A stretch of DNA of 64,000 nt from Candidatus Omnitrophota bacterium (GTDB lineage: Bacteria > Omnitrophota > Gorgyraeia > Zapsychrales > Fredricksoniimonadaceae), in assembly GCA_015233675.1 (NCBI GenBank), contig JADFXH010000005.1:80964-144963 (forward strand), in the 5' to 3' direction. Below are positions 3,001 through 54,000 of the stretch, piece after piece. Below the pieces are notes generated by a model, which had not been told where the DNA came from, did no database searches, and saw only the letters and a program-made list of their open reading frames with translations. Within the stretch, counting starts at the first letter, position 1. Each line of letters starts with the position of its first letter. A program made the position numbers and the translations under genes.

Positions 3001-6000
3001 GGCGGCCTTGTTCTTGACGAGTTTTTGTCTCCTCATAACCAGAAGGTCATGCTGACGGATCAATTGCATTGGACAGAAAAACTCACTTTGTTCGAGAATT
3101 TTGATTTCTATTTCAATAAACCGCTCGTGCCGATTTATAACTTATTAGTCTTCTTGTTCGCCATGTTCTTGCCTCTGGCTCCGTTCTCTTATATAGCTCT
3201 GCCTCTTATTCTAATTGGCATACAATATATGTTGGCCGAAGCCATTACCGCCGGCGGCATAAGGTTATTTACGAGTGAAAAAGGTCTCATTAAAGGACTT
3301 GGCTTATATTTGAAGAGAATGTGGAGTTTGGTTTTCACATTCGGCGTTCTTATTCCGCTTCATGACTGGAAAACCAGAGGAGCGCTTGAAGGGACAGGCG
3401 GCCTTTTCACCGGCGGTATCAAAGACATGGTTTATCCAATGCTGCCGTTTAAGAAGTTATACGAAGGGTATAAGATTTCTGTTCAAATGGGGGTTGCCTT
3501 ACTGATTGTCCTAGCCTTTGCTCCAGCCCATCCATTGGCTATTGTGACACAGTGGTTCTTCTATATGCTGCCCTTCGTCTTTATATATGGCGGATTCATG
3601 AAGAATGGTTTCAAGAGAACAGGCGTTACGTTAAGTATACTAGGTTCTTTGGCCGGTTATTTTGTTAACTATTTGTTATTTGCATCAACCCCGTTATGGA
3701 TATGGTTAGCCGCTCCGTGGGCACTCACAGCAATCGCTGTTTTTGTAAAAGAACTTAGCAAGAAAGAAGGGGTTGTAAAGGCATTTAAAGAGTCATTTGA
3801 ATATTTCTCCAAAGATGAGAAGATCCGCGGCATTACATTGGGAACGCTGGCTGCAGTATTAGTAGTATTGGAATTCTTTAGGATCGCTCTTGTTGGGGAT
3901 TGGATTATCAAGAAATTCTCCAATAGAGGCGGCTTGTTAAGTGTGATAGGTGCATTCGCCGGATTCATCCTTCACAATTTAGTATTTGTATCAACTCCAT
4001 TGTGGATATGGCTGGCAGCTCCTTTAGCGGTAATATTCATTGTTGTTCTTACAGCTAAAATTAGGGGAGTAGAAGATATAGCCAAGGCGTTTAAACAAAC
4101 AGTGGGATATTTCTCTAAAGACAAGACCATTGATGCCGGGATCAAGAAATTAGCTCAATGGGGAGTTTTGGTATTATCTAAAATTAAAGGAACCCCGACA
4201 GACGCAAATCGTTCTCAGGCGCCGCCGGCAAATCAAGACAAAAAAGACCCCACCCGCGCCCTGCCCGGCCAGCCGATGTTAAGCTTGCCCCAAGTTCGCA
4301 GTGCTGTCGAGAAAGTTGGCTTTGATCATGCGGCAATTCTGGCAGAAGATAGACAAGAGGTGAAATTAGCCTTAGCGTATTTACGTTCTGTGGGCCTTGA
4401 TATTATGGCGGCCCATTTGGAGGCAATTGCCAAAGCTGGTTTAATTAGGGCAGGTCCATTTGAAGGTTTCTTAGCCGCTGTTCACACGCTTGCTGATGGC
4501 CGCGAAGCAATAGTCCTTAGCTTTAATCATCCTGTCCATGACGATTTATTCGAACGCACTGCCTCACTGATCCATGAGATCGGTGCTATTGCTCAATTCA
4601 ATTTAACAGACGAAGAAAACGAATCCCGTGCTCAAGCATTCTTGGGATTGACATTTATTATTGGATTAGAAATCGCCAAACGTATTCATAACCGTGAATA
4701 TAAGGAAGCAGAGAGCCTTAAAGCAAAAAACAATCAGAAACAAGCCAACAACGAAATCATCACCAACTTCTTCTTACCGACTCCACAGCAAGAATTCGTT
4801 AATCGTGTTATTGAAGCCGCGATACAGGTGGCACGCCGCGGCGAATACACTAAGGTTTTAGTCAATCCATGGGCCAATACACCGCATGAATATGAAGTAA
4901 CGATTGCGAGATTAACCGAAGAGTTTGCTTCAACCGCGTTCGGGAATCTCTTGCAAGCCATCGGCAGGCAAGTTCCGCAGCAAGCAACAGCCGATGATAT
5001 GGCAGAAATCATACGCGGCATTAATCTGGCGCAATACAACACATCAGCGAAGTTTGCCATTTACAGCGGCCCCCCGGGCGGCGGCAAAGGTGCCGTGGCA
5101 GAAAGATTCTACTCCCTGTATGGAGATTTGGCAGAACAGTTTATCCTGTTCCATACCCGCAACATTCGTGATGGCGAAGAGATGGGCAAGAATTATCATT
5201 ACCGCAATGAAGGGGCGTTAAATGAATTAGTCGAGCAGGGCAATGTGATTAAGGCAACAGTCAACGGGCAATTACAGGGCTTGCCCATACAGTCATTTGT
5301 TGACAAGTATAATTTTATTGATCCTAAGTCTGGTGAGGAGCATAAGGGGATTGCAATGGTCAATGGCCTGGATGCAGTGTTCCATGGCGGAAAGATTGTC
5401 ATCCTGGAATGCGGGCTGGCCTGGTTTGAGTCATTAAGAGAACAGTACGGCGAAGATATCATGAGCTTCTTTATCAGCCCATTTAGCGATGAGACATTAA
5501 ATGCGCGTTCCCGTGATTCAAAGGATGTTATGTCAGCTATTGTAGGATTAGAGATCGCAAAGAGAATCCATAGCCGTGAATATAAAGAGGCCGTGAGGCT
5601 GAAAGCAAAGAGCGCAGAAAAGCAAGCCCAGGAAGAAAGGATCAGCAACTTCTTCTTACCGACCCCTCAAAAAGAATTTCTTAACCGCATTAACGAAGCG
5701 GCCAAGCAAGTGGTGCTCCGAGGTGAGTATCGTAAAGTGTTAGTCAATCCATGGGCCAACACCACGGAAGAATATGAAGCAACGATCGAGAGGATAACCG
5801 AGGAATTCGCATCAGCGATTTTCAAGAATCTCTTAAAGGCCATAGGTATGGAAATTTCGCAAAGCTTAACTGCTCAAGGCATGGCGAAGATGTTAAGAGG
5901 GATAGATTTAAGCAAGTACGATACGCCGGCCAAGTTTGTAATCTATAGTGGGCCTCCGGGCGGCGGCAAGGGTGCCGTAGCAGAACATTTCTATGCTTTG

Positions 6001-9000
6001 TACGGAGACTTGGCAGAGAAGTTCGTGCTCTTTCATAGCCGCAATATCCGTGACGGCGAATCAATGAGTAAGAATTATCATTATAGAAATGAAGAGTCCC
6101 TTTATAAGTTAGCGGAAGAAGGCCATATTATCACGGCTGCTGTTAACGGACAGTTGCAGGGGTTAGCGTTAAATACTTTTGTCGATCATTATGAATATGT
6201 GGATCCAAAAACAGGGGAAAAGCATAGCGGGATTGAATCTATCAAGGGTCTGGATGCCGTCTTCCAAGGAAGAAGAATAGTGATCTTGGAATGCGGACGG
6301 TCATGGTTTGAGTCATTAAGAGAACAATATGGCAGTGACCTGATGAGCATCTTCATCTCGCCGTTTACAGATGAACAATTAAGAGATTCCTCGCGTCCGT
6401 TGCCCGGCAAGCCTATGGTGAGTGTTGAAGTTGTTGTCAATGAATTGGCCCGGCATGCGGCCAATAGTTTTGAAGTGTTAGATGAGAACAATGACGCAGT
6501 GTTATTGGCGATACATATTTTAGAGAATTTAGGCAAAGAAATTAAGGCCCAGGATCTTAAGGAAATGGCAAAACTTGGGTTACTTCGAGCCGGCCCGCTG
6601 GATGGATTTTTAGCTACGATTTTCCTTGTTGATGATCAAGAAACAATCCTTCTTTCAAATAACTATCCTGATTTTAATACAGTCGAAGAACAGGCCTTAA
6701 GCCTGGTCCACGAGATCGGCGCAATATCCAAATTTAATTTTAGCCATGAAGAAAACAGCAGCCGTGAAGAAGCCGGCCGGGTTTGGTTAAGCCGCGTGCC
6801 GCCTGTCAATCCTGCCGAAGCCGCTGTTGTTGGTTTAGAGATTGCCAAGCGCATTCATGCGGGTGAATGCAAAGAGGCGGCAAAGGTAAGGACATGCTCC
6901 CTGGAGAAAAAATATATGGGCGAAGAAATTACAAACTTCTACCGGTCTACAGCCCAGGCGATATTTATTGATAGAATTAAAGCGGCAGTAAATCAGATGA
7001 GGCATCGTCATGCATACAAAGAAATTTTAGTCAATCCATGGGCCAAAAATGAGGCAGAACACAGGGCAACGATTGAAAAATTAACTGAAGAGTTTGCCTT
7101 GAGGATCTTCCGCAATATAGCGCAGGCAGTTGGTATAAGATTTGCAGAAACCGCGACTGCTGGAGCGTTGTTTGAGGAAATCCGGAAAGTAGATTTATCC
7201 AAGTACGATATGATCGAAAAGTTTGTGATTTACAGCGGACCTTCGGCAGTAGGTAAAAAAGAAATCTGGGACAGGTTCTTTGAATTGTATGGAGATATGA
7301 TTTCAAGGGTCGTGTTATTCCATACCCGTAATATTCGTAAGAATGAAGCGATGGGTAAGGATTATCATTATCGCAATGACGCGGCGCTTGAACAGCTTGC
7401 CGATGAAGGCAAGATCATTACCGCAAGTGTCAATGGCCATTTACAAGGGTTGGCTGTTAGGAGTTTTGTTGACCATTATATATATGAAGACCCGCTCACA
7501 GGGCAGAGATATGAAGGAGTAGAAGAAATCAAAGGTCTTGATTCTGTATTCCACGGCAACAAGATAGTCGTTTTAGGATGCAGCCTAGCCTGGTTTGAAG
7601 CATTGCAGAAACAGTATGAGGACAGGTTAATGAGCATTTTCATCTCCCCGTTTAGTGATAAAGAACTTGAAGAGGCTGTGAATGATCCTCAGAAAGTGTT
7701 TAACGCAACTGTTGGTTTAGAGATTGCCAAGCGCATTCATGCCAGGGAAGTCAAAGAAGCGGGCGAAGTAATGAATGATTCTCGGGGTAGACAGTATAAG
7801 GGCAAAGAAATTACAAACTTCTACCAGCCGACAGTCCACGAAGAATTTGTTAACAGGATCCATGAGGCAGCCATCCAGATAGGACGTAGTCATGAATACA
7901 AAGAAGTTTTAGTCAATACATGGGCAAAGGATGAAGCAGAATATAAGGCAACGATCGAAAGATTAACTGAAGAATTTGCTTTAAAGATTTTCCGTAATAT
8001 AACGCAATCTATCGGCATAGGATTTTCGCCGACAGCGACAGCTCGAGCGTTGGCTGAAGAAATTCAAAAGGTAGACTTGTCCGATCATGATACGATTGCA
8101 AAGTTTGCGATATACAGCGGTCCTCCGGGCGGTGGTAAAGGAGCTATATGGAAAAGGTTCTTTGATCTATATGGTGAGATGATCTTAAGGTTCGTATTAT
8201 TCCATACCCGTAATATCCGAAAAGGTGAAGTAATGGGCAAGGATTATCACTACCGAAATGAAGAAGCGCTCGAAGAGCTTGCTAAAGAGGGCAAAATCAT
8301 TACTGCAAGGGTCAATGGCCAGTTACAAGGCTTGGCTATCAGAAGTTTTGTTGACCAATATTCATATACGGACCCTGTTTCAGGCCTGAAGCATGAAGGA
8401 ATTGAGGAGATTAAGGGTCTTGATTCTGTATTCAAGGGAAGCAAGATTGTCATTCTGGAATGCGGCCTTCCCTGGTTTGAATCCTTAGATAAACAATTTG
8501 GGGATAAATTAATGAGCATATTCATTTCCCCGTTTAGTGACGATGAATTGCCCTCTTTATTACAGAATTTGCCGGCTACGAATGACCTTTTACCGTACTT
8601 TAATGAAGACCGTAAAGCTTTGGAGAAACAGCTTAAACGCTGGCAAGCGGCGTATAAGGCCAAATTGGGCAGGGAAATAACGATCAATCAGCTTTTGGAA
8701 AAAGAAGAATTCTTCGAACTTCTAAATGAGGACGGAGAGGTTAATTGTAAAGTAAAACCGCGGGCGCTGGTGCATTATGACGGGGATTGGCATCGTGATG
8801 TGCGGGTGATTATGATGAATAACCGTAAGGAAGTATTGATTCAAAAGAGAGCTTCGACAAAGGATATTGAGCCCGGTTTGTTTGCGGAATCGGTTGGAGG
8901 GCATTCAAAGATCGGAGAGACATCTGATCAAAACGTGGTTCGAGAAATTCGTGAAGAGGTTGGGATTGATCGTGTTGATCAAAGCCGGTTGTTAAATTTG

Positions 9001-12000: not shown

Positions 12001-15000
12001 AAACGTTACGGCATTGAAATGGCTTATGAAGCACAGGACGTTTTCGGGGCCATTAAGAACCGTGACGAAGATGCTGTGGTAGAAACGCCGACCACGGCCA
12101 AAAAGGCCCAGTCGAACCACTGGAAGAAACTCATTTATAAGGCATTGCCCGAGGTTGAAATTCCGGATTCTTCCATTATTGAGTTGCCACAGAGCGCTGA
12201 ATATATGACGCCGGAACAATTGCGCGAAGAATTATTGAGTTTGAAATTCAACTCGCATATAAGCGATGGCGTAGGCGTACTTATTGGCCGCGATTTTAAT
12301 TCCATTACTCTTTATAAAAAAGACCCCACCCGCGCGCTACCGGGCCAGCCGATGGCAGAGTCCAAGGTGGTAGCGGCAGAAATGTCCCAGCATAACACCA
12401 ACACATTTGAGCCTATGAATGGACATAATGCAGCGGTGAGGCTTGCGATGTTGGCTTTAAGGGCTCTGGGGCATGAAGAGAAGGCGGATACTCTGGAATG
12501 GATGGTCAAGGCGGGCCTGGTGCGAGCCGGGCCGGTGGAAGGATTTTTAGCGACGGTTTGGTCAATGAAGGGCCAAGAAGGGATAGTGTTATCGAATAAA
12601 TATGCTGAGTTTAATAACATTGAAGAAAACGCCCTTAGTCTGATCCATGAAATCGGTGCCCTCTTAAATTTCAGTCATGAACAAAACACCGCTCGAGAAG
12701 ATCTGGCCCGCAAGTGGTTTGAGGCGAATGGCGCGCTGATAGGTTTGGAGGTAATCAAGCGCATCCATTCACGGGAAAGCAAGGAAGCGCAGGAGGTTAA
12801 GGCTAAAAACATAGCCATGCAGGAAAAGGGAGAATTAGCCCGCATTGACAGGTTTTATGTTCCTGCGCGGCATGATGATTTATTGTTGCGTGTTAAGGAA
12901 GATGTGTGGCAGGTTTTACGGCGTGGAGAATATAAAAAGGTGCTGGTGAATCAATGGGCATCCAGCAGCAGGGAATACCAATCCGCCATTGAAAGGGTGA
13001 CGGAGGAATTCGCCAAGGCAATTTTTGGAAATATAGCCAAGTCTTTGGCGTTAAGCATTACGGATAAGACGAGTGCCGCAGAATTATACGATATGTTAAT
13101 GCGGGAAGATTTGTCCCAACTGCCTGTTGAGGTGAAGTTAGCTGTTTATTCAGGACCGCCGGGTGGCGGCAAGCGTGTTATCTGGAACAAATACAATGAG
13201 CTTTATGGTTCGATTATGGAAAGGGTTGTATTGTTCCATACTCGAGCGATCCTGCCTTCAGAACAAATGGGAGTAAACTTCCATTACCGCAGCGTTGAAC
13301 ATTTACTTATGTTAGAAAAAGAAGGAAAAATCCTGACAGCAGTTGTTAATGGGGAATTGCAGGGGTTGCCCCTTACCAGCTTCGAGGACCAGTACGTGTT
13401 CATGGATCCTATGAGCAAAGCCAAATATGATGGGACAGCCCAGGTCAGGGGTTTGAGGGAGGTATTAAGCGGTAACAAGATAGGTATTTTCGAATGCGGT
13501 GTTTCGTGGTTTGAGATATTAAAGGAATTATATGGCGATGAGCTGATGAGCATTTTCATATCACCGTTTAGTGATAAGTATATGGCAGGGGCGATCAAGG
13601 ATCCGTTTACAATATTTGCGGCGAAGGTGGGGATGGAAACGGGACAGCGTATCCGCTCGCGAGAATATAAGGAAGCTGAAAAGTTAGCCAGGGAGGCGCG
13701 GATATTGCAATCCCAAGGCCGGCGAATAGAGGAAGATAAATTTTTCCAGCCGACCAAGCAGGAAGAATATGAAAACCGCATCAAAGAATCGGTTGAGCAG
13801 GTTCGCCGCAGGTTTGAATACCATAAAGTTTTATATAACTCTTGGGCGAAGACAAAGGAGGAGTACGAACAAAGGATGGCGTTTTTGGTGGAAGAATTTG
13901 CTATAAGCGTGTTCAGGAATTTATTGGGAGGCATTGGGCTGAAGCCTGAAGGTTCAACGGCAGAGGAGTTGGCCCAACAGATCAGGAGGATAGATTTAAG
14001 CCAATATGATACCTGCGCAAAACTGGCTATTTACAGCGGGCCGCCGGGCGGGGGCAAAGGGTCAGTGTGGGAAGGGTTTATTGATCATTATGGAGACTTG
14101 GTTGAGAGGTTTGTTTTATTCCATACAAGGCCGATGCGCAGCGGTGAGGTCATGGGGAAGGCGTATCATTTCAGGAATGATGAACATCTCCTCAAGCTTC
14201 AGGAAGAAGGCAAGATCATAACGGCGCAGGTCAATGGGCAAATGCAGGGACTGGCGGTGAGTTCATTTAAAGATCTCTTTGAGTTTAAAGATCCTAAATC
14301 AGGCCAAGAGATTAAAGATGATAATGGAGCGATGGTGCGTGGGATGGACGAAGTTTTCAAGGGCAATAAGATCGTTATTTTGGAATGCGGCCTGGCATGG
14401 TTTGAATCTTTACGCACGCAGTATGCGGATGAAATCATGAGTTTGTTTATCTCACCGTTTGCTGAAAATGAATTATCATTTAGCCATGTGGAGAAATTCG
14501 CCAGCAGGAGTGCCGACAAGAAAGATACCAGCCGGCCGCTGGCGGGACAGCCTATGGCTACTGTGGAGCAGGTAGCGGCAGAAATGGCGAAGCATGATAT
14601 CAGGAAATTTGTCAAGCTTGATAAATACAGTGCGGCGTTCAGGGTTGCGAAATCAGCGTTAAAGGCGATCCGTCGCAATGATATGGCAGAGATGCTGGAG
14701 TGGATGGTCAAAGTGGGGCTGGTGCGTGCCGGACCTGTGGAAGGGTTTTTAGCAACGGTTTGGGTTATCGATGGCAGGGAAAACATAATTCTCTCCGACA
14801 AGAATCCTGATATTGAAGAACAGATTTTAAGTTTGGTGCATGAAATAGGGGCGGTTGGACGTTTTGAGCGCAGCCACGAAGAGAACAGTACGAGGGAAGC
14901 GATGGCCCTCAAGTGGCTGCAGGCCAAAGGAGTGTTGATAGGCTTACAGGTTGTTAACCGGATCCATTTCCGCGAAGGCAAGGAAGCGTTGGCTGTTAAG

Positions 15001-18000
15001 GAAGAGAACTTGAAGAGGCTGGCAAGAGGGGAAAATATCGAGAAATTCTATCTTCCTACTAAACAGACAGATTTGCTCAAGCGGATAAAGGAAGCGATAT
15101 GGCAGGTATTACGACGCAACGAATATAGGAAGGTGCTGGTAAACCAATGGGCCTTAAGCGAGAAGGAATATCAGTCAACGATAAGCAAGTTGACAGAGGA
15201 GTTTGGTCTGGCGATTTTTGAGAATGTGGCTGAGGCACTAGGGCTGGATGTCCCGAATAAAGCAAGCGCGGATGTTTTATTTGAGATGTTAAAGAAGGAA
15301 GATTTAAGGCAGAAGTCAAGCATAGCGAAGATGGCGATTTATTCCGGTCCTCCAGGCGGAGGCAAGGGCGCAATATGGGATGAATTCATAAGGCTTTACG
15401 GGAAGATCCGCAGAGAAACATTTGAGAAGAACCTGCCTGATGGAGGGGAAGTTTTTGACTGGCTAATGCGAGAGGGCAAATTGGAGGGTATTGCCGGCCA
15501 AGAAGGGGCGCTAGCCGTGGAGATTGAAAAAATCAATGGATCTTTGATAGGGACGCCCTACCAAGAGAATGCCAAACAAATTATGGAATTTTTACAGCAG
15601 TACCAGTTTGGGGAGATGATTGACAGGTTTGTGTTGTTCCATACCCGGGAGATCCGTCCCAAGGAGGCGATGGGAGTTAATTACCATTACCGCAATGAAG
15701 ACCATTTATACGAGTTAGAAAAAGAAGAGAAAATCATTACAGCGCGGATCAATGGCCAATTGCAGGGTTTGGCTATAAAGGATTTTGAGGACCCGTATGT
15801 GTATGTAGATCCAAAGAGCAAGGAGAGACATGCAGGTACAGGGCATGTGCTTGGGATGGAATCGGTATTGGAGAGCAACAAGATCACAGTGCTGGAATGC
15901 GGCATGGCATGGTTTGAAGCGTTATCGCGTAAATACGGTGATGAGTTAATGAGCGTATTTATCTCACCGTTTAGCGACCAGTACTTGTCCAACGCGGTGA
16001 AAGATACAGGCACAGTTTTTGCGGCAAAGGTTGGGTTGGAAACAGGGTTACGCATTCATTATTATGAATACAGGGCAGCAGAACGTTTGAAAAAGATATC
16101 AGAGGACCTTCAAAATGAGGGAAGATTTATAGAAGAATTTTGTCAGCCGATGGGACGTTCGGATTTTGAGGAAAAGACAAAGGAAGGGGTCGTACTGACA
16201 AGCCGTCGCCACCAGTATGATAGCTCAGGAACTCCATTGGTGAGTCCGGCTGTCAATATATCTGACAGCGAGTATGACCGTCAGATGGATATTCTGGGAG
16301 AAGAATTTGCTTTAAGGGTGTTTAGGAACTTGGCGAAAAATTTAGAATTTTATCCGCCGGACAATACAGCAGATGAGATAGCAGACTTTTTTAGGGTTAT
16401 TGATTTAGGTCAATATGAGAGCAGAGCCAAGCTCGTATTTCTTGGAGGATCACCCGGAGTTGGCAAGAGGGCCGTCAGGAGAAAGTTTATTGAACGTTTT
16501 GGAGATTTAGTCGCGCACTTTGTTATGTTTTCAATTGAGGGGATGGGGCCCAACGACAAGATGGGAGAGACGTATCATTTCAGGAACAAGGAACACCTTT
16601 TGAGACTGCAAGATGAGGGTAAGGTAATTTTGCCTAGGATAGACGGAGAAGTTGATTGGAAAACCCCGGGTCTGGCCGTGAAGTCATTTGAGGACAGTTT
16701 CAAATTTAGAGACCCTGTAACGAAAAAGGTCACAACAGGTACCATGTGGGTACGGGGATTGGATGATGTTTTCAGTGACAATAAAATTGTCATTTTAGAA
16801 TGCGGACTATCGAGGTATGAGTCTTTAAGGACGCAGTATGCGGATGAACCGTTGAGCATATTTATTGCGCCTTTTAGCGATGAAGAGTTATCGTGTGAAC
16901 ATTTAGCGGAATTCGTACCTGCGGTTACGGGGCCTAATGTGAAAAAAGAGTTTGAAGAGCCGTTAGATTTAGGGCAAGCCTATCAATCCATTGTGGATCG
17001 GCTCAGGGAGATGGGCATTTTAGGACAAGGAGACGGGAGAATATCAAAAGAATTTGTAGCGGATGTGTTCGCGAATCATTTTTGGCATCATTATACAGGG
17101 GACGTTCCTGATCAAATTAGGGTTGAAAGACGCACGGCACAAACAATTATTGCGGCCTTAATGATCGAGGCGGCGAGGGAGAATCCGTCTCGGCAGGTTG
17201 TTTTATTCCATAATCCATATGAAAAGCTGGTTAACGCGCAAGAGATGCTCCCTGATATGTCAGCCGCAGAGATGCTTTTGATAATTTCTGATGACACGTA
17301 TGAATTAAGGAAGAGAACGTTGGAGTGGTTAAATTCCAAACGCGTGACCATAGATGACGAGTGGGTAAGGAAGCCGGCATTGCCGATCATAGGATTTGAA
17401 TTTAAAGGGCCGGAGGGGAGATATATCAAGGCAAGTGATTTGATTGAGGAGTACCGTAAATATGCTCCTGAGGCCAGTATAATGGTCCCGGTGTTTTTAC
17501 AGGGAGGCGTAGTTGAATTAAAAGAGATAAAAGGCCCAAAACAGGATTCCACCCGTCCTCAACCCGGCCAGCCGATGGCTTCTGCGGAAGCAGTTTCTAC
17601 AGAGCTGGCTAAGCATGATTTGAAGACATTTACAATATTGAAGGAAACTGATGAGTCCGTTGTTTTAGCGGTCAAGTCCATGAACGCGATGGAAGAGACG
17701 GATAAAGCCGAGCATCTATTGATGATGGTACGCGAAGGCCGCGTGCGTGCGGGGCCGGTCACAGGCTTCCTCGCAACAACCGCTGTTGTTAATCAAGCAG
17801 AAAATATAATCCTTTCGAATACTAATCCTTCCTTTAATACGGTTAAAGAACAAGCCTTGAGTCTAGTCCATGAGATTGGTGCGACAAGAACATTTAATTT
17901 GACACATGAAGTTAATAGCCAAAGAGAGTTGAAAGCAAAGACTTTGATTAGGGTAGCTGGATCCGCAGTAGCAGCCGCGTTTCTGGCATTTATGGGTAAG

Positions 18001-42000: not shown

Positions 42001-45000
42001 TCAGAAAAAGGCCGGATGTCGCGAGTTTTTGGTGAGAAATTTTCAAAAATTTTGCCTATTTTGCAGCAATCTCTTCATCCCGTCCATAGGGACTTATTCG
42101 AGCGCGCTGCGTCATTGGTCCATGAGGCAGGTGCCGCGCTCGGTGAATCGGATCAAGTAAACGAAGCCAGGGCCCAGGCCTTTTTACTGGTAACTGCTAA
42201 AGTGGGATTAGAAATCGCCAGGCGTATTCATAGCAGGGAATACATTGAAGCAAAGGGCTTGAGAGAAAAGAATAATACCAAATTAACAAATAAAGAAGAT
42301 CTCGAAGAAAAAGATTTCTACATACCGACGGAACAGGAAGAATTTGAAAACAGGGTCATTGAGGCAGCTGTGCAGGTAGTTCGCAGTGACGAGCATCCTG
42401 TAGTGTTGGTGAATCCATGGGTAAGGACAGATCAGGTTGAGGCTACTATGGAGGGATTAACCGAAGAGTTCGCAAGAGCGATATTCAGGAATCTTTTGGA
42501 AACAATCGGCTGGATGAGTGACGAGATGACGGAGGATGAAAGGGCGGATATTCTAGAGAATATGACAGCGGATGAAATGGCAGAGATTTTACAGTATGAA
42601 AATCTTTCAGGATACAATCCTGCCAAGTTCGTTATATATAGCGGACCACCGGGCGGCGGCAAGGGTACGGTGGCAAAGAGATTTTACAAATTGTACGGAG
42701 AACAAGGAAAGAATTTAGTAGAGAAATTCGTTTTATTTCATACTCGAAATATCCGTCAGGGTGAAAAGATGGGCGTCCACTATCATTACCGCAATGAATT
42801 AGACGGCAAGGTTATGAAAGACTGGTTTACTCAGATCGGCTGCGATAGGGACAGGATCGCAGAGGTTTTGGTTGAGACAGGATATCTGACAAAAGAGCAT
42901 CGTTTTATAGAAGAATTTAATGGTTTAAAGCAAGATTTTAAAGATGCTTTACCGGAATATACAGAGGAACAATTTACGCTGATTGAGCCTGTGTTGAAAC
43001 AATCGCTGGAGCATATTGGAATCACCAGCAATGTTCTTTTGGCAAAAGTAAATGGTCAGCTGCAGGGGCTGCCCTTGAAAACTTTAAGCGAGCCTGAGTA
43101 TTATTATGAAGATCCCACCACGGGGGAACAGCATAATAATAAAATGGAACCGAGTATAGTCAAGGGCCTTGATGCGGTGTTCGCAGGCAACAAGATTTAC
43201 ATTTTAGAATGCGGTTTGGCCTGGTTTGAGGCATTAAGGGCGCTCTATGGCGATAAATTGATGAGCATCTTTATTTCACCGTTTACTTATGAGCAATTAG
43301 GATATGTGAAGAAAAATAAAAACAGGAGAGATACAAGCCGTCCATTACCCGGCAAGCCGATGGTGAGTGTTGAAGTTGTTGTCAACGAATTGGCCCGGCA
43401 TGCGGCCAATAGTTTTGAGGTGTTAGATGAAAACAATTCCGCGGTAATGTTAGCGATAAAAATATTAGAGAATATAGGGAAAGAACTTAATGCAAAAGAG
43501 CTGAGAGAAATGGCGAAGCTGGGGCTGCTTAGAGCCGGTCCTCTCGACGGATTTTTAGCCACGATCTTCCTGGTTGATGGTCAAGAAACAATCCTCCTTT
43601 CAAATAATTACCCTGATTTTAATACAGTTGAAGAACAAGCCTTAAGTCTGGTCCACGAGATCGGAGCTGTATCCAAATTTAATTTTAGCCATGAAGAAAA
43701 CAGCAGCCGTGAAGAAGCCGGTCGGGCTTGGTTAAGCCGCGCGCCGCCGGTCAATCCTGCTGAAACTGCAGTTGTTGGTTTAGAAATTGCGAAGCGCATT
43801 CATGCGAGGGAAGTGAAGGAAGCCGCCGAAGTAGCGAAAGATTCCATACGAAAGAAGTATGCGGGAGAAGAAATTAAGAACTTCTACCAGCCGACAGTCC
43901 AAGAAGAATTTGTCGGCAGGATCCATGAGGCAGGCGTTCAAGTCGGACGTCGTCGTGAATACAAAGAAATTTTAGTCAATCCATGGGCCAAGGATGAAAC
44001 GGAATACAAGGCAACGATTGAAAGATTAACTGAAGAATTTGCTTTAAGTGTCTTTCGCAATATAGCGCAAGCCATTGGCATAGGATTTTCACCGACAGCG
44101 ACAGCTGAAGTGTTAGCCGAAGAAATTCAAAAGGCAGACTTGTCCCAGCACGATACGATTGCAAAGTTTGCGATATACAGCGGACCTTCGGGGGTAGGGA
44201 AAGAAGCCATATGGAAAAGGTTCTTTGAGTTGTATGGGGATATGATTTCAAGGTTTGTGTTGTTCCATACCCGTAATATCCGTAAAGGTGAAGTAATGGG
44301 TAAGAATTATCATTACCGTAATGAAGAGGCGCTTGAAGAGCTAGCCAAAGAAGGCAAAATCATCACTGCAAGGGTTAATGGTCAGTTACAAGGGTTGGCC
44401 ATCAGGAGTTTTGTTGACCAATATTCATATAAGGATCCTGTCTCAGGCCAGGAGTATGAAGGGATAGATAGGATAAGAGGGCTTGATTCCGTATTCAAGG
44501 GAAGCAAGATTGTCATCCTGGAGTGCGGGCTATCCTGGTTTGAATCGTTGAATGAGGAATTTGGGGATAAATTAATGAGCATATTTATCTCGCCGTTTAG
44601 CGATAAGGAACTTGAAGAGGCTGTAAATGATTCACAGAAAGTATTTGATGCAGTTGTTGGTTTAGAAATTGCGAAGCGCATTCATGCGAGGGAAGTGAAG
44701 GAAGCCGCCGAAGTAGCGAAAGATTCCATACGAAAGAAGTATGCGGGAGAAGAAATTAAGAACTTCTACCAGCCGACAGTCCAAGAAGAATTTGTCGGCA
44801 GGATCCATGAGGCAGGCGTTCAAGTCGGACGTCGTCGTGAATACAAAGAAATTTTAGTCAATCCATGGGCCAAGGATGAAACGGAATACAAGGCAACGAT
44901 TGAAAGATTAACTGAAGAATTTGCTTTAAGTGTCTTTCGCAATATAGCGCAAGCCATTGGCATAGGATTTTCACCGACAGCGACAGCTGAAGTGTTAGCC

Positions 45001-48000
45001 GAAGAAATTCAAAAGGCAGACTTGTCCCAGCACGATACGATTGCAAAGTTTGCGATATACAGCGGACCTTCGGGGGTAGGGAAAGAAGCCATATGGAAAA
45101 GGTTCTTTGAGTTGTATGGGGATATGATTTCAAGGTTTGTGTTGTTCCATACCCGTAATATCCGTAAAGGTGAAGTAATGGGTAAGAATTATCATTACCG
45201 TAATGAAGAGGCGCTTGAAGAGCTAGCCAAAGAAGGCAAAATCATCACTGCAAGGGTTAATGGTCAGTTACAAGGGTTGGCCATTAGGAGTTTTGTTGAC
45301 CAATATTCATATAAGGATCCTGTCTCAGGCCAGGAGTATGAAGGGATAGATAGGATAAGAGGGCTTGATTCCGTATTCAAGGGAAGCAAGATTGTCATCC
45401 TGGAGTGCGGGCTATCCTGGTTTGAATCGTTGAATGAGGAATTTGGGGATAAATTAATGAGCATATTTATCTCGCCGTTTACGAATGAGGAATTGGCCTC
45501 TTTATTACAAAATTTGCAAGCCAGACGACAAGACGCGGCCCGCGCCTTGCCCGGTCAGCCGATGTTGACCAGCAATGAAGTAAACAACTTTGTTAAGTTT
45601 GGGTTTGATTATACGGTGATCCTTGCAGAAGACAGCCAGGAAGTTCAAATGGCCTTAGCGTATTTGCGCTCGGTGGGACTTGATGCCATGGCCGACCATT
45701 TAGCGGAGATTGCCAAGGCCGGTTTAATCAGGGCAGGTCCGTATAAAGAGTTCTTAGCCGCTGTATATACTCTTGCTGATAAACGTGAAGCTATAATCTT
45801 TAGCGATTATCATCCTGTCCACGACAGTTTATTCGAACGCGTTGCTTCCCTAATCCATGAGATAGGGGCTACTATTCCATTCAATTTAACAGATGAAGAG
45901 AATGAGGCCAGGGCCCAGGCGTTCTTGAAATTCAAAGAAGTCGACGTTTCTTTATCTCGCCTTTCAATTGATAATGTGACAGAAAAGCTGCTGCTTTATC
46001 CCTTGGAGCTGATGCATTCGCCGGATCTTTATCAATACCTAGATGACTTTGATAGGACGCATTATGAATTTTCTGGAACAGGGGACGGGAAAGGCTATTG
46101 GAAGTCGAAAGATTTTAAATCGCACGGTCAAGATTTAGTTCTAGGCACCTGGGAAGATGTGATTAGCGACAATGGATTCAATGATACGATGCCACGTGAC
46201 ATTGTCATCCGGTTTAAAAGAGAAGGGAAAAGCGTCAGTTTTTATTGCTTTGATGATCATGGCCGCTCAGTAATGTATGCCATGGAAGCTGTTGCGCGGC
46301 ATGAGATGCCAGCAGATGGCAATATTCAACTATTTCTTGATGAGCATAGTGACGGCAGCCCTAAATCAGGGGTGGATGGGGTAATACAAAAAGACTTGTC
46401 AGCTGGCAAAAAATATCCGCCTGTTGGAGATGCTTTGCATCTGAAGGATTGGACTGCCTATGAGTACTTTGATATGTTAACAATGAATTGCTTCAACGCG
46501 CAATTCGTAGATATCAATTTCTTAAATAAGCATTTTTGGATTGATGGGGCATTAATCGTACGTCAATCGGATGGCTTCTCTTATTATAAGACGTTACCAT
46601 ATTTTTTATTGAAGGAACGGCCGAGAAATGAAGAAGTCTTCTTAAATATTGATACTGATGTTACCGGATTAGGAAGAAGGGATGCTTTTTACAATGATAT
46701 TGGAAGAAAGTGGGTCCAACAAAAGGACCTGATGTTTTTTAAGGAATTGCTGATAAAACTGGCCAGGGAAGACAGGAATTTGCTTTCTTCTTTTCATGCT
46801 AGCACAACTCATTTTTACGATTCATCGGATGATAATTATGTTGCTTTTGGTCATGTCGGTCTCGTTCGTTTTCTTGCTCGAGTAGCTCCCGCCATCCTAT
46901 TGTCTGACGAGCAAAGTCTTCCAGGTCCTAAGCTTCAAGAAATGGTCGATCAGGCTATAAATCAGCATCTTCAATTTTCTGGCTCTAAAGAGAAAGACCC
47001 CGCCCGCACCCTACCGGGCCAGCCGATGGCTTCTGCGGAAGCTGTTTCTACAGAGCTGGCCAAGCATGATTTGAAGACATTTACAATATTGAAGGAAACT
47101 GATGCTCCCGTTGTTTTAGCGGTCAAGTCCATGAACGCGATGGGTGAGCAGGACAAGGCCGGGCATCTGCTGATGATGGTACGCGAAGGCCTCGTGCGTG
47201 CCGGTCCGGTTGAAGGCTTCCTTGCTGCAACAGCCATGATTGATGACCAAGAAAACATTATTCTCTCCAATGCTTATCCCGAATACAACAGCGCTTTAGA
47301 ACAGTCGCTCTCTTTAGTCCACGAAATCGGTGCCACAGCCCGGTTTAATTTATCTCATCAGCAGAATGCCGAGAGAGAAGAGCTAGCCCGTACGGCGCTT
47401 AAGGCCAGTGGAGCTGTTTTGGATACGTTCTTTTACAGTGCTCATGAGACCAAGGAGGATTTTACGCCGCTTCTTCCTTATATGCGCAAGGAGATAGAGA
47501 AGGTCATCCGCGCCCAAAGGCCGCTTATCGTGATAATGGAAGGGGGGACGGTATTAAGCGCATTTTTATATATGCTCGAAGCCTTCCAAAAGTATGCCAT
47601 GGCCCATGATAGGCATCTTAGATTTAACGAGGTCAGGGCCATTGACTTGATGGATACCGTGATGGAAGGCATGGAGCGCGAAGGCTTTGACTATTTATTG
47701 AATTTGCTTGATGATCGCCGGTACGCAGGAGTTTTTCAGGCATTTTTAGATGAGACGAATGCCTCTTTGGCAGATCTGGTAGGGCGGGCAACAAATGTGG
47801 ATGTCAGTCTAAGCATGCCCGGCTTCCCCGGGGCAGTCATAGAGTTCATGAGGCCTTATCGGCAAAGGGGATTGAATGTTACTTATTTTGCGGAAGAAGA
47901 TGACCTTTTGACCATGCGTCATGGCCTGCGCGAGGATATTTTGACCAGCATGTCGGTCGAAAAGTTAATAAAAGGCCAAAGGGAGGAATTTTTGCGTGCC

Positions 48001-51000
48001 TCAGATGAGCGGATAAAAGAGAACCTGAGGGCTACCGTTGTGCGAGACAGGTCATTGGCTTCTCAATTATTCAGGATAAAGGCAAGTTGTCCTCAGGCCG
48101 TGATCTGGGTGACAAGAGGAGGGTTGCATTTTCGTGAGCACGAGTTCTTCCTGAACAAATATCCTCGACAGGAACTTCCGGCCATGGTCAAGACCGTCGG
48201 ATTTAAAGATTGGGACAACAACATTCTTCCTTCAGAAGCATTGACTCTTCGCCAGATGCGCACCCTTACGATAGAAGAAAGCGACATTAGTTCCGATATA
48301 CAGCCGACGGAAGAAGAGTCCCTCCAGAACGCTTTGGGGGCGCAGATCTTGCATATCTTAAGAAAGAAAGGGACTTCGGGAAGTTATCTGACGATCATAT
48401 CCGGGATCATGCGGATGGTCCGGGCGTGCTCTAACGAGGATATATACCAGTTCTTTGCCGATCTTCCCAAGATCGGTCTTTTCGCGGAGGAGAACGAGGT
48501 GGGGGCCTATGAAGATGTTGTGATTTCCATGCTCGCCAAAATGGCTCAGAGGCTGTTGGGCACGGTCAGCCCCTTCGCCGGGACCTCTTCGGATTCCCGG
48601 TCAAACATAAGACCAATGATGAAAGAAGAGATCGTGCTCAGGCAGTCGCAAGAAGGAAGCGCGATAATGAGGGTTTTGCCCGTGGTTGAGATTCCCGAGC
48701 CGACAAAGAGAGAGCCGAGGGCAAGCCAGGAGTCGCAGGATTCGGGGTTGTTCGTTATCAATACAACATTAAGGCAGGATTTGTCCAATGCGCTTTACGG
48801 GATTGTCAGGCAGAACAGGATCAATTTTATCGTTGACAATATCTTTAAAGGCAGGCCGTATACCGATGCGAAAAGGTTGATGAGGGTCTCCGGAATGGAT
48901 AAAGGACAAGCGCAGGAGTTTCTAAAGAGGCTTGCTAAAAAGAAAGATAGCGCCCGCAGCCTGCCCGGCGAGACGTTGGCGGCATCCGAGGCTGTGACTG
49001 CCGAATTGACCAGGCATGACCTGAAGGATTTTGCGGTCCTTCATGAAAGCGACGCAGCGGTAATGCTGGCTGTGAGGTCCATGAACGCGATGGGTGAGCA
49101 GGACAAGGCCGAGCATCTGTTGATGATGGTACGCGAAGGCCGCGTGCGTGCCGGCCCGGTTGAAGGCTTCCTTGCCGCATCAACCATGATTGACGACCAA
49201 GAAAATATTATTCTCTCCAATGTTTATCCCGAATACAACAGCGCTTTAGAACAGTCGCTCTCTTTAGTCCACGAAATCGGCGTTACTAATATATTTAATT
49301 TAAGCCATGAAGCAAATGTTGGCCGTGAACAGCAGGCGCGCAGAGAGGTGTATCTTTTAAGACTTCAGGAACGCCGAAACGGTCTTTTGGATATATCCTC
49401 CAAAAAGATTGAAGGTATCGCGGGAAGCAATAAATTTTATTCCAATGGTCAGGCCAAAGAGTTCTTGGGGACAACTGTAATTGCTTTTGTGTCTGAAAAT
49501 TCTCCGGCATTCGAACGTCTTATTGATCTACAGTTCCGATTAAAACAAGCCGTTGAAAAAGCAGGTCTCTCCCAGTTCATGGCCTGGCTGGATCCGGCAA
49601 GTTTTCACATGACAATTTGCGATATAGACAGTGAGCTTCCGGAATTGACAGGTGATCATATAAGCCAACGCAAAGAAGAGGTCAGCCGCGCGTTTTTAAA
49701 TTTAAAACCAAATGATAGATCACCGATACAAGGACAGATCCGGCATCTCGGATTCTTGGCTGCATTGACGTCGCTCGTTTGGTTTGACAAGCCTGAGGAG
49801 TTAGATAAGGCCCTTGAAATTGAAGCAGAGATCAAGGTTAATACGAGTGAGCCTAAACAGCAAAGAGAATTTACCGGTCATATTTCATTGGCTTATCCGG
49901 TAGGCCGGATGACGCCCCGGCAACTGGCGGATCTACTCGGAGTTTTCAATCAATTTGATAATGAGGATCTTGGTGAAGTTGTTTTTGAAAATGTGACCCT
50001 GACTAAATTTGAGGACATGCAAAAATTTATGCCTGTTATCTCATTGGAGCTTGGGTCAGGGAGCACTGATCATTCCCGCTCATTGCCAGGCCAGCCGATG
50101 GTCAGGGATCAGGAGGTTAGGTCAGAAATGGCCCGGCATAACATCAAAGATTTTGTGTGGTTTAATGAATATAATTCAGCGGTTAGGGTCGCGATGTTAG
50201 CTTTGCAGGCGGCAGGACAAACAAAGATGGCAGAGGCTCTTGAGTTGATGGTCAAGGCGGGATTGGTGCGTGCCGGACCGCTGGAAGGCTTCTTGGCAAC
50301 GACCTGGCTGATCGACGGTAAAGAAGGCCTTGTTCTTTCTGATAAATATCCTGAATTTAACAATATTGAAGAGAATGTCCTTGGCTTGGTCCATGAAATT
50401 GGGGTGGTGTCTTTATTTAACCTCAGCCATGAACAAAATATTGCGCGGGAAAATTTTGTTCGCAAGTGGCTTGATGCGAACGCTGCGTTGATAGGCCTGG
50501 AGGTCATCAAACGCATTCATGCTCGCGAATGCAAGGAAGCTGCGGAAGTTAAGGCTGACAACGAGGCCATGCAGGCTCGTGGGGAATTAGACCAAATAGG
50601 AAGATTTTATGTGCCTGCGCGGCAAAAGGATTTCTTAGGACGCGTTAAGGAAGATGTGTGGCAGGTCTTACGCCGGGGAGAATATAAAGTGGTCCTTGCG
50701 AATCAATGGGCCAACAGCAGCTGGGAATACCAGTCCACCATCAAAAGAGTAACCGAGGAATTTGCAAAGGCGATATTTGGGAATACAGCAATGGCCTTAG
50801 GGTTGCCCGTTACAAAAGAGACAAGTGCGGCGGAATTATTCAATACGTTAAACCAAAAAGATTTATCCCTTGTGCGGGGAGCTGCCAAGTTGGCTGTATA
50901 TTCAGGACCGCCCGGCGGAGGCAAGCGTGTGATCTGGAAGAATTTTATGGAACTTTACGGCTCACTTATCGACAGGGTGGTGCTGTTTCATACCAGGGAG

Positions 51001-54000
51001 ATCCTGCCTTCGGAAAAAATGGGAGTCAACTATCATTATCGAAGCGCGGATGCTTTACGTAAATTAGAAAGTGAAGGGAAGGTCATAACCGCGGTTGTCA
51101 ACGGGTACTTGCAGGGCTTGGCCGTGAGCAGTTTTGAAGATTCTTATGTGTTTGTGGATCCGGCCAGCAAGGTCAGATATGAAGGAACAATTCAAATTCG
51201 GGGATTGGATGAGATGTTAAGCGGCAGCAAGATAGCGGTTTTCGAATGTGGTGTTTCATGGTTGGAGGAATTAAAAAGAAAATATGATCATGAATTGATG
51301 AGCCTTTTTATATCACCGTTTAGTGACCGGTATTTGGCCGGAGCTATCAAGGATCCGATCACGATTTTTGCAGCTAAGGTGGGCATGGAAACAGGTCAGC
51401 GTATTCGTTTGCGCGAATACAAAGAAGCGGAAGCGTTAGCCAGAGAGGCGAGGATAGCGCAGTATCAGGGCCAGCGTATAGAGAAATTTTTCCAGCCGAC
51501 TAATCAGCAGGAATATGAAAAACGTCTTAAAGAAGCGGTCGAGCAAGTGGCCCGCAGGTTTGAATACCATAAAGTTTTACAAAATCCGTTGGCGAAAACA
51601 CAGGAGGAATATGAACAGAGAATGAGGCTTTTGACGGAAGAATTTGCAATAAGCGTGTTCAGGAATTTACTGGATGCCATCAACGTTAAGTATGAAGAGC
51701 AGGCAACGGCCGATAATTTAGCCCAAATGATCAGAAGGATAGACGTAAGGCAATATGAAACAAAGGCCAAATTGGTAATTTACAGCGGGCCTCCGGGAGG
51801 AGGCAGAAGCCTGGTGTGGGAGGGGTTTGTTAAACGTTACGGAGATCTGATAGAGGGGTTTGTATTATTCCATACGAGGGCAATGCACAGCGGCGAGTGG
51901 ATGGGGAGAAACTACCATTTCAGGAATGACGAACACTTAATAAAATTGCAGAAAGAAGGCAAGATCATTACGGCAAAGGTCAATGGCCAAATGCAGGGAT
52001 TGGCGGTTGTTTCATTCGAAGATTCATTTAAGTTTAAAGACCCTCAAACAGGCAACGAAATTAACAGCGTTGATCAAGTCCGGGGTATGGATGAAGTTTT
52101 CAAGGGCAATAAGATCGTTATTCTTGAATGCGGTCTGGCATGGCTTGAAGCTTTACGGGCGCAGTATGCGGATGAAATCATGAGTTTGTTTATCTCGCCA
52201 TTTAGTGAAGAAGAATTGACATGTACTCATTTGGATATTTCTGACTGCGAAAACACGGTGGAAAATGATCACGCCCGTCCGCTGCCGGGCCAGCCGCCGG
52301 TATCTGTTGAGACGGTGGCCGCAGAAATGGAAGGGCATGATGTCAACGCATTTGTTGTCTTGGAAAAATACAGCGCGGCGGTCGCAGTGGCTATCTTAGC
52401 GCTAATGTCTATTAAACAGGTTTTTATGGCAGAGAAGCTTGAAGAGATGGTAAGGGCAGGCTTGGTACGCGCCGGGCCGCTGAAGGGATTTTTAGCAACT
52501 ACATGGGATATTGACGGGCAGGAAAACATAATTGTCTCGGGTAATTCCGATATTAACGAACAGATTTTAAGCTTGGTTCATGAAATAGGGGCGATTACGT
52601 ATTTTGGCCTGAGTCATGGAGAAAACACTGTTCGTGAAGAGTTGACCCGTAAATGGCTGGACGCCCAGGGAGCGCTGATAGGATTAGAAGTTGTCATGCG
52701 AATTCATGGACGTGAGTGTAAGGAAGCAGAGAAGATCAAGAAACAGAACGAGGAAAAGCAAGCAGACGGGAAGATAGGGGAAATTGAGAAATTCTACCTG
52801 CCTACGGAACAGTCGGTTTTGGAAAGAAGGGTTCAGGAAGCGGTATTGCAGGTATTGCGGCGACGTGAATACAAGAAAGTCTTGGTCAATCAAAGGGCCT
52901 CCAGCGGAAAAGAGTTTGAGGCTACGAAAACGAGGTTAACAGAAGAGTTTGCGCAGGAGATATTTAGAAATGTGGCGGCAGCAATAGGGTTAGCGAAAGA
53001 TTTAGGGCAAGAGGTTTTGGATAAAGCAAGCGCGATGGAATTATTTGAGATGTTGAGACAGAAAGATTTAAGCCAGGTGTCGAGTAGTGCGAAGATGGCG
53101 ATTTATTCCGGCCCTCCCGGCGGAGGCAAGGGAGTGGTTTGGGATGAATTTATAAGTCTTTATGGGAAAATAAGCAGAGGAAAATTTGTGGACGAGCTGC
53201 CGCCTTTTGGGGGTGAAGTTTTTGATTGGCTAATGGAAAATAAAAGCTTGGAGGGGACTCCGGGTCAAGAAGGGTATATAGCTGTTAAGATTGACAAGAT
53301 CAAGAAAGACTTAGATAAAGAGCCGTTATATAAAGAAAACTGCGAAAAAATTATAGCATTCTTAAGGAAGTTTCAGTTTGGGGAGAAGGTTGACAGGCTT
53401 GTGTTATTCCACACAAGAGATATCCGTGCCGGAGAAAAAATGGGGGTCAACTACCATTATCGCAGCAAGGAACATTTATTCAAATTAGCAAAAGAAAGAA
53501 AGATCTTGGTAGCGGAGGTTAATGGTGAACTGCAAGGGCTAGCGGTTGGCGATTTTACAGATCCTTATGTGTATGTGGATCCCAAGAATCATAATAGGGT
53601 TGCAGAAGGGATTATTGCGAAACCAAGGTTTTCAGGAGCAACTTTCATTACAGGCACAATTTTGGACCCGGACAATAAAGGGGCAGACGGCGTTTGGGAA
53701 GAATACTCCCCAACAGAGGTTTGTTTAAAAGAAAACAAAAACCTGACAGAAGCTGTTGTGCGGGAAATTGCAAAGAGCGATTTTGGTAAGATTTGGGCTA
53801 TTGTGCAAGAAGCCCAGGAAGTGCCGAAGATATTAGGGATGAATACGTTATTCGGCGGGGAGAAGATCATAGTGCTGGAATGCGGCATGGCATGGTTTGA
53901 AGAATTGACGCGAAAATATGGCGACAAGTTAATAAGTATATTTATTTCACCATTTAGCGATCTGTATCTGTCCCGCGCGGTTCAAAATCCGTTCACGGTC

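Follow-up and report, generated by a model that had tools for sequence, protein, structure and literature searches.

We analysed a 64-kb stretch of DNA (64,000 nucleotides, referred to below as the window) from a Candidatus Omnitrophota bacterium, assembly GCA_015233675.1, contig JADFXH010000005.1, positions 80,964 to 144,963, and found that a cassette of about 5.6 kb recurs within it. The two copies very probably arose by an ancient segmental duplication within a single giant, multi-enzyme open reading frame (ORF) of the Omnitrophota type. The entire window is a single stop-free frame (frame +0, nt 1-63999, 21,333 codons or amino acids), open at both window ends, and therefore all of the features described here are internal structure of one giant gene. 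Each of the other reading frames contains 692-1,790 stops across the window, and the coding strand is G-rich over its full length. The duplicated cassette is made of guanylate-kinase-like units (K), copies of a 147-residue domain (L) and a further domain (X1), numbered in the order of their occurrence.

Copy A (aa 4106-5995, nt 12316-17985) has the order L5-K5-K6-L6-K7-K8-X1-L7 and aligns collinearly with copy B (aa 16688-18743, nt 50062-56229), which lies about 37.7 kb downstream and has the order L16-K14-K15-L17-K16-K17-X1'-L18. When aa 4108-5978 were compared with the whole protein by BLASTP, three collinear high-scoring segment pairs (HSPs) were obtained, joining aa 4108-5278 to 16690-17868 (66% identity over 1,184 columns), aa 5283-5549 to 17944-18218 (55% over 276 columns) and aa 5530-5976 to 18255-18723 (63% over 473 columns), whereas copy A matched the protein elsewhere at 35-48% (the next best being 41% to aa 1416-2850 and 48% to aa 14444-15325). 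The diagonal joining the two copies was also visible in a protein-level self dot-plot of 200-aa tiles. The boundaries of the block are sharp: identities per 40 columns rise from about 5-12 to 18-35 at aa ~4106/16688 and drop to 5-8 past aa 5976/18723, with a weak tail of 30-44% identity upstream of the block, from aa ~4058/16626. These results confirm the original prediction, made from the letters and reading frames of this DNA, that an eight-module block recurs at a second site.

For module segmentation of the whole protein we used iterated hidden Markov models (HMMs), started from a single K unit and a single L unit. This gave 17 K and 19 L modules in an order identical to that proposed originally. 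In the block, where everything is read from the + strand, the first module is L5 (12316..12717, aa 4106-4239), which begins with D..R.LPGQPM and has the motif HEIGA, and its counterpart in copy B is L16 (50062..50469, aa 16688-16823). These are followed by K5 (12718..13596, aa 4240-4532) and K14 (50470..51348, aa 16824-17116), the only two K units with the P-loop GPPGGGKR, and then by K6 (13606..14487, aa 4536-4829) and K15 (51358..52230, aa 17120-17410). The spacing from K5 to K6 and from K14 to K15 is 296 aa (888 bp), compared with 294 aa for the other K units. Behind L6 (14518..14916, aa 4840-4972) and L17 (52261..52656, aa 17421-17552) come K7 (14917..15999, aa 4973-5333) and K16 (52657..53982, aa 17553-17994), both of which have an insertion of about 70 aa with GGEVFDWLM behind the P-loop. 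K8 (16009..16902, aa 5337-5634; P-loop GSPGVGKR) and K17 (53992..55116, aa 17998-18372) are degenerate units, in which RIHYYE is present and H-T-R has been swapped for FSIEG in K8 and FSSRG in K17. They are followed by X1 (16903..17538, aa 5635-5846) and X1' (55117..55779, aa 18373-18593), which are 66-70% identical, and the block closes with L7 (17539..17985, aa 5847-5995) and L18 (55780..56229, aa 18594-18743). The HMMs hit all the K and L modules of both copies.

The rare characters common to both copies are thus GGGKR, the VFDWLM insertion, HYYE, a 4-aa DW.TPG insertion and the loss of HTR. In addition, copy B has insertions of its own, about 75 aa in K16 and about 69 aa in K17, and has lost the P-loop lysine in K15 (GGGRS) and K17 (GAPAVGRKS). 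The preserved order, subtypes and 888-bp unit length, the idiosyncratic motifs of K5/K14, K7/K16 and K8/K17, the same X1 domain behind both degenerate units and the substantial divergence with extra insertions in K16 and K17 had all been claimed from the first reading of this DNA, and all were borne out.

Phylogeny and divergence of the paired modules

Identities between K units were calculated over 291 aligned columns, and trees were made by neighbour joining (NJ) with bootstrap. K5 and K14 are 70% identical (next best 56-58%), K6 and K15 76% (next best 52-55%), K7 and K16 64% (next best 57-58%), and K8 and K17 60% (next best 47-49%), with NJ bootstrap values of 100%, 100%, 84% and 100% respectively. 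L5 and L16 are 61% identical (next best 55-56%, bootstrap 72-85%), and the same identities apply to L6 and L17, which are reciprocal nearest by identity only, their bootstrap being weak. All four K pairs and these two L pairs are accordingly reciprocal nearest neighbours, the K pairs by margins of 6-21 points, as had been expected of modules copied together. The clades (K5,K14,K7,K16) and (K6,K15,K8,K17) each have 100% bootstrap, and these two nested K clades indicate therefore that an L-Ka-Kb triplet had earlier been duplicated in tandem to build the block itself.

The divergence of the two copies was measured on a codon alignment of the whole block (1,879 codons), which gave 65% identity in amino acids, 71% in nucleotides, a synonymous divergence (dS) of 1.18, a nonsynonymous divergence (dN) of 0.24 and a dN/dS of 0.20. 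Across the eight module pairs dS ranges from 0.91 to 1.64 and dN/dS from 0.16 to 0.24, with 0.24 for the degenerate K8/K17 and 0.21 for X1/X1'. This uniform divergence fits one old event and purifying selection on both copies. With eight modules in order, reciprocal K pairs, uniform dS and sharp ends, the block supports the earlier claim that the gene has grown by ancient multi-module duplication.

Relatives and other repeats

A search of 5.8 billion proteins with the block as query returned four matches, all of them fragments from Omnitrophota metagenome-assembled genomes (MAGs), one labelled Deltaproteobacteria. The GTDB species genomes were scanned for the K-unit pattern, and this yielded seven loci, at most 58% identical, each of them a giant ORF that is open throughout and contains K-K pairs together with L modules. 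By their labels, five belong to Omnitrophota (Candidatus Gygaella obscura among them), one to Candidatus Omnitrophus and one to uncultured Planctomycetales. The nearest matches to the window protein are 46-60% identical. X1 was found in none of these seven loci, which were unusable for dating, and a scan of the GTDB genomes for the K8-X1 pattern gave no relative. We also considered a Ka/Kb order conserved across Omnitrophota and found no support for it; in other genomes both K units of a pair usually cluster together.

The only comparable block found elsewhere, with the order K6(tail)-L-K7-K8-X1-L, is on metagenome contig Ga0182030_10005300 (L008). The VFDWLM insertion and the HTR loss are both present in L008 and therefore predate the duplication; HYYE, the 4-aa DW.TPG insertion and the K16/K17 insertions are missing from it. 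With copy A, L008 forms a single HSP of 60.5% identity, and its identity with copy B is 59-61%; A and B are 65% identical to each other. On the 1,312 codons in common, dS is 1.15 for A-B, 1.30 for B-L008 and 1.58 for A-L008, and dN is 0.25, 0.28 and 0.27 in the same order. In rooted trees, K8 with K17 (99-100%) and X1 with X1' (91%) leave L008 outside. From these comparisons the age of the duplication is close to that of the divergence from a lineage whose protein sequence is now 40% different.

The surroundings of the block in L008 are informative as well. Past its terminal L, L008 matches window aa 19207-19543, which follow L19, and then aa 16450-16687, a 2H-phosphoesterase-like stretch directly upstream of L16. 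Because L008 joins the regions behind L19 and in front of L16, the cassette order around copy B has been rearranged between the two lineages. Over a longer interval, L008 aa 1217-1968 corresponds to window aa 19059-19543 and 16450-16687, and L008 lacks L18 together with a TIM-barrel-like stretch (aa 18594-19057). The neighbourhood of copy B is the one common to L008, and copy A is therefore probably the derived one.

Two further repeats in the gene involve L-K-K triplets on the + strand. L2-K3-K4 (6379..8562) and L12-K12-K13 (43324..45507) are 79% identical in amino acids and 81% in nucleotides, with 0 gaps in 728 codons and dS 0.74, and L2 and L12 are 90% identical (bootstrap 96%); the resemblance that had been pointed out between them is thus well founded. 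Within the second triplet, K12 and K13 are identical at 832 of 833 nt (nt 43767-44599 versus 44649-45481, an offset of 882 nt), and identity is at a random level outside this tract. The head and tail of K12 are K3-type junctions, the tail of K13 is K4-type and the identical core is K4-like. The original prediction had taken K12/K13 for a recent single-unit duplication, and this did not hold, since K12 keeps its K3-type flanks and K13 its K4-type tail; the tract is better read as a putative recent gene conversion from K13 to K12 inside an older block duplicate, or possibly as an assembly problem.

L1-K1-K2 (4240..6393) is collinear with L10-K9-K10 (nt 39397-41550), with 64% amino acid identity, 0 gaps in 718 codons and dS 1.34. 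The similarity of these two triplets had likewise been noted before and it stands at the level of collinearity, but not of sisterhood: bootstrap is 40% for K1/K9 and 32% for K2/K10, the units K1, K2, K9, K10 and K11 form one clade without internal resolution, and L10 is nearest to L9.

L9 and L10 themselves (aa 12046-12178 and 13135-13267; nt ~36136-36534 and 39403-39801) are 84-90% identical, with dS 0.34 and dN/dS 0.39. They are far more alike than other L pairs, although 1,090 aa and unrelated sequence rich in transmembrane (TM) segments separate them, and they are the product of a younger duplication or conversion of a single module. Three diverged NUDIX-like segments (26-34% identity) were also observed at aa 2863-3035, 3232-3418 and 11799-12013 (nt ~8587-9105, 9694-10254 and 35395-36039). 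Two of the three stand directly behind L modules (L3 and L8), and L3+NUDIX and L8+NUDIX look like another small two-module duplication.

History of the duplication and its alternatives

We propose that the cassette [L - Ka - Kb - L - Ka' - Kb' - X1 - L] would have been built first, by the tandem triplet duplication described above, and that an in-frame copy of it then arose at a second site of the gene, about 37.7 kb away. Non-allelic (unequal) homologous recombination among the many L and K repeats would be the most likely means of copying, probably with copy A as the product. Both copies would afterwards have been held under purifying selection, copy B later gaining the insertions in K16 and K17 and losing the P-loop lysine in K15 and K17, and gene conversion of the kind suggested for K13 and K12 may still be acting between repeats. 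The recombination mechanism, the direction of copying and the functions of the modules are points that we infer rather than show.

Several observations weigh against so simple a history. L7 and L18 are not sisters (bootstrap 16%), and both are nearest to L14 (75% for L18, 69% for L7), within an L subfamily of L3, L7, L8, L14, L15, L18 and L19. The 3' end may have been remodelled, or L7 and L18 may lie outside the same event, and because this pair fails in the tree the 3' limit of the duplication is set by collinearity and not by sisterhood. The expectation that paired modules be sister taxa held, therefore, for the four K pairs, for L5/L16 and, by identity only, for L6/L17, and failed for L7/L18. 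K7 groups with the K7 of L008 (79-90%), in conflict with the K8 and X1 trees, and the three-way site patterns of A, B and L008 switch near aa 5290-5340; this mosaic history could come from old conversion (of the K8-X1 part) or from uneven rates. The dating against orthologues that had been proposed thus gives an age close to that of the L008 split but no consistent order, K8 and X1 uniting A with B and K7 uniting A with L008. Synonymous sites are also near saturation (pS about 0.6), which makes dating coarse, and a close orthologue of the whole gene was not found in the collections searched. Finally, the gene extends past both window ends, and there may be further copies of the block.

The block could be the best-preserved part of a larger duplication of about 14-17 kb, from L1...L7 (aa 1414-5995) to L10...L18 (aa 13133-18743), in which the middle cassettes were replaced later, a possibility that deserves attention although we are inclined to doubt it. 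In its favour, each of the three block pairs is collinear, their order is preserved and their offsets are similar (11,719, 12,315 and 12,582 aa), and each K/L-rich super-region starts right behind a cluster of TM-like segments (aa 1042-1350 and aa 12206-12990). However, the inter-block stretches (aa 2855-4105 and 15170-16687) have only L modules in common, K1/K9 and K2/K10 are not resolved as sisters in the tree, and dS is unequal among the pairs (1.34, 0.74 and 1.18), though conversion could explain the latter. The sequences that follow each block likewise have no similarity beyond L modules. It is rather unlikely, in our judgement, that the blocks are much older still and that their similarity and sisterhood were partly kept by repeated intragenic gene conversion (concerted evolution). 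Such a process would be in keeping with the conversion that appears active in this gene at K12/K13, with the mosaic relative to L008, in which the 5' half unites A with L008 and the 3' half A with B with a switch near the K7/K8 boundary, and with the clustering within pairs of the K-K pairs at other Omnitrophota loci. Against it, dS is high throughout the block (0.9-1.6) with no near-identical patches, the dS of K8 and X1 (1.0-1.2) is not below that of K7 (1.2), and the copy-specific insertions in K16 and K17 were not homogenised.

Hardly any weight can be given to a series of independent K or L unit duplications that happened to fall in the same order, or to an assembly artefact joining strain variants. 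Single units do interact or duplicate here (K12/K13, and L9/L10 at 84%), and metagenome assemblies of repeats can be chimeric, but eight modules in order, including the otherwise unique X1, with aligned inter-module junctions and uniform divergence, argue strongly for a block copied as a whole, and the same cassette is found in another organism (L008). Moreover, a nucleotide identity of 71% is far too low for assembler confusion, no stop interrupts the frame over 64 kb and the two copies have different flanks. An ancient copying of the eight-module block within the gene is thus the reading that we retain.

The modules and their known counterparts

Besides K, L and X1, domain searches of the window found NUDIX, GH2-like, HEAT, 2H-phosphoesterase-like, MbnB/TIM-like, DUF218, Maf, ARMT1-like and AAA_5 domains, and in the dot-plot of 200-aa tiles the protein outside the K/L regions is mostly non-repeated. 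Clusters of hydrophobic, TM-like segments are present at aa 1042-1350, 9987-10348, 11050-11582 and 12206-12990 (nt ~3124-4050, 29959-31044, 33148-34746 and 36616-38970), the first and last of these being the ones in front of the two K/L-rich super-regions. A single TM-like segment (aa 6004-6022, nt 18010-18066) comes directly after L7, at the end of copy A. The window has just two complete ORFs of at least 200 aa, 13284-13934 (-) and 14199-14981 (-), both antisense within copy A and most likely arising from the compositional skew of the coding strand.

The K units score 74-138 bits against Pfam Guanylate_kin (PF00625), above the gathering cut-off of 25.2, and cover profile positions ~2-132 of 182. 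They align, K6 among them, to residues 5-82 of solved guanylate kinases (GK), including the P-loop and the motif TTR..R.GE..G..YHF. With TIGR03263, the Gmk equivalog model, K6 and K8 reach 47.3 and 26.8 bits at model positions 2-85 of 180, both below its cut-off of 160.45. The usual P-loop of K, GPPGGGKG, is adenylate-kinase-like, without Ser/Thr after the Lys. In GK structures, guanine is recognised by the Glu and Ser/Thr of the ..E....GN.YGT segment, and the P-loop is of the GK(S/T) type; the P-loop of K reads GGGKG or GGGKR. In the alignment with 7U5F/3LNC, 'iiTAqVNGQmQGLA' of K stands opposite 'leHAEVFGNLYGTS', and by our reading of it the guanine-binding positions do not appear to be conserved in K. 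K is a guanylate-kinase-like P-loop domain that conserves the phosphate- and nucleoside monophosphate-binding motifs. It is probably a nucleotide or phospho-transfer domain, and the K8/K17 subtype would be a non-catalytic derivative.

Every K unit also has a segment resembling the LID and C-terminal helix of GK (RI..RE.KEA ... EY..VLVN) about 90-130 aa upstream of its P-loop. After each L this segment occurs without a preceding core, and no such segment follows the last core before each L. Because the segment sits upstream of the P-loop, this suggests that the GK-like fold is circularly permuted or spans the unit boundaries. In comparison with Gmk and PF00625, the P-loop and H/T-T-R...R.GE..G..YHF of K align to GK residues ~2-90 and the LID/C-terminal-like segment is recognisable; K differs by its score, its GPPGGGKG P-loop, the guanine positions, the location of the LID-like segment N-terminal of the P-loop and the presence of 17 copies in one polypeptide. 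The GK domains of MAGUK scaffold proteins are catalytically dead and, in a comparison drawn from general knowledge, K8 and K17 are similarly without catalytic motifs yet constrained.

In L, residues D3, G10, R70, G72, P73, E88, H108, E109 and N123 are invariant, and no family match was found for this domain at the sequence level in Pfam, NCBIfam or PDB. A PDB profile search gave only a weak segment of RNase PH (E 0.0055, 48 columns), which was treated as chance. The AlphaFold2 (AF2) model of L6 has a pLDDT of 86, and in a Foldseek search of PDB the top six matches of the L model were selecase and the seventh abylysin, with probability 0.91-0.97, E 0.08-0.9 and TM-score 0.38-0.55. The predicted fold of L thus weakly resembles minigluzincin metallopeptidases (selecase 4QHF/4QHI, abylysin 4JIU), its best structural matches, and L has an invariant helix-borne His-Glu. 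Minigluzincins, however, carry HExxH and a downstream Glu ligand, whereas L has HE[IM]G[AVTP] and the Foldseek E is just 0.08. This motif is present in all 19 L modules, in all L of the loci L001-L008 and in P0007/8, and never as HExxH, of which the whole 21,333-aa protein has none.

Eighteen of the 19 L modules start with a near-invariant D..R.LPGQPM (e.g. nt 12322, 14524, 17545, 50068, 52267 and 55786), which is absent elsewhere in the protein and may serve as a linker or be a site of modification or processing. A similar motif, ARPLPGQHMPSG, closes the homologue P0001, and other giant-protein fragments have short punctuation motifs of their own (SSSP, AGSP). An L domain was also observed in P0008, a 261-aa protein on L009 (ENA ERZ25039603 contig_3623, 6001-11251), encoded directly upstream of a 1,487-aa PPDK_N/PEP-utilizers protein. 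L may thus also exist outside giant ORFs, or the gene predicted for P0008 may be only part of a longer one; the neighbouring PPDK-like gene gave no functional clue for L.

X1 appears to be a near-orphan domain. A word-indexed search of 5.8 billion proteins gave no match, and an exhaustive HMMER search over 1.84 billion representative proteins found two distant relatives only, P0005 and P0006, one of which is a 5,930-aa multi-enzyme protein. In Pfam, X1 had only a sub-threshold match to Recombinase (E 0.031, 15 bits, cut-off 21.1) and X1' had nothing, and NCBIfam has no family for it. A likeness to Atg8/LC3 was dismissed as meaningless, given a Foldseek probability of at most 0.2 on a poor AF2 model (pLDDT 55).

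There is perhaps a slim chance that the L modules, each placed right behind a D..R.LPGQPM junction, are non-canonical, minigluzincin-derived processing domains, with the ORF cut at these junctions into L-K-K cassettes and the degenerate K8/K17+X1 unit acting as a regulatory pseudo-kinase. If this were true, the block duplication would have doubled the output of a particular set of four kinase-like subunits, of which two look catalytic and two are degenerate. A circularly permuted guanylate-kinase fold for each K unit, with the LID/C-terminal helix in front of the P-loop, is a separate possibility of similar standing.

By its architecture and the taxonomy of its relatives, the window protein belongs with the giant multi-enzyme proteins of Omnitrophota, described as 'Archaeovorins' by West-Roberts et al. 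2023 (bioRxiv 10.1101/2023.11.21.568195); a 2026 complete-genome preprint recognises a 'multi-enzyme metabolic cluster' class of giant proteins (bioRxiv 10.64898/2026.06.07.730766). The window likewise has an ORF of more than 21,000 codons with varied enzyme domains, HEAT, glycosyl-hydrolase-like domains and interspersed TM clusters, and all relatives detected came from Omnitrophota, as MAG fragments or as giant ORFs. No glycosyltransferase or peptidase content of the kind typical of Archaeovorins was detected in the window. The 2026 preprint found a Pfam domain repeated in 65% of long proteins and attributed this to ancient duplication followed by divergence (bioRxiv 10.64898/2026.06.07.730766). 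Ancient duplication and divergence in giant genes is therefore already in the literature, and our advance is incremental. Both preprints treat repeats per Pfam domain, and neither reports a collinear eight-module segmental duplication or describes L and X1. The word 'guanylate' is absent from both texts, and our literature search found no paper pairing 'guanylate kinase' with Omnitrophota. The set of modules, 17 guanylate-kinase-like units, 19 HEIGA domains (L) and the near-orphan X1, is thus new with respect to the two preprints, and the paired copies are natural replicates that reveal the constrained residues of these domains.

The duplicated block offers a concrete example of how a record-length Omnitrophota gene may grow, by in-frame copying of a cassette with both copies retained under selection, followed by insertions, loss of catalytic motifs and occasional gene conversion. 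Intragenic duplication of multi-domain cassettes is familiar from the immunoglobulin and fibronectin (Ig/Fn) super-repeats of titin and from the modules of nonribosomal peptide synthetase and polyketide synthase (NRPS/PKS) megasynthases, and it is an ordinary growth route for giant modular genes. In those systems, as here, a multi-domain cassette is the unit of copying and the copies are kept in frame under purifying selection. The hierarchical pattern is also in common, being represented here by a triplet, then a double triplet with X1, then the block. The present case differs in that 37.7 kb separate the copies, which are dispersed rather than tandem, and in that the modules are kinase-like and unannotated domains rather than Ig/Fn or assembly-line domains.

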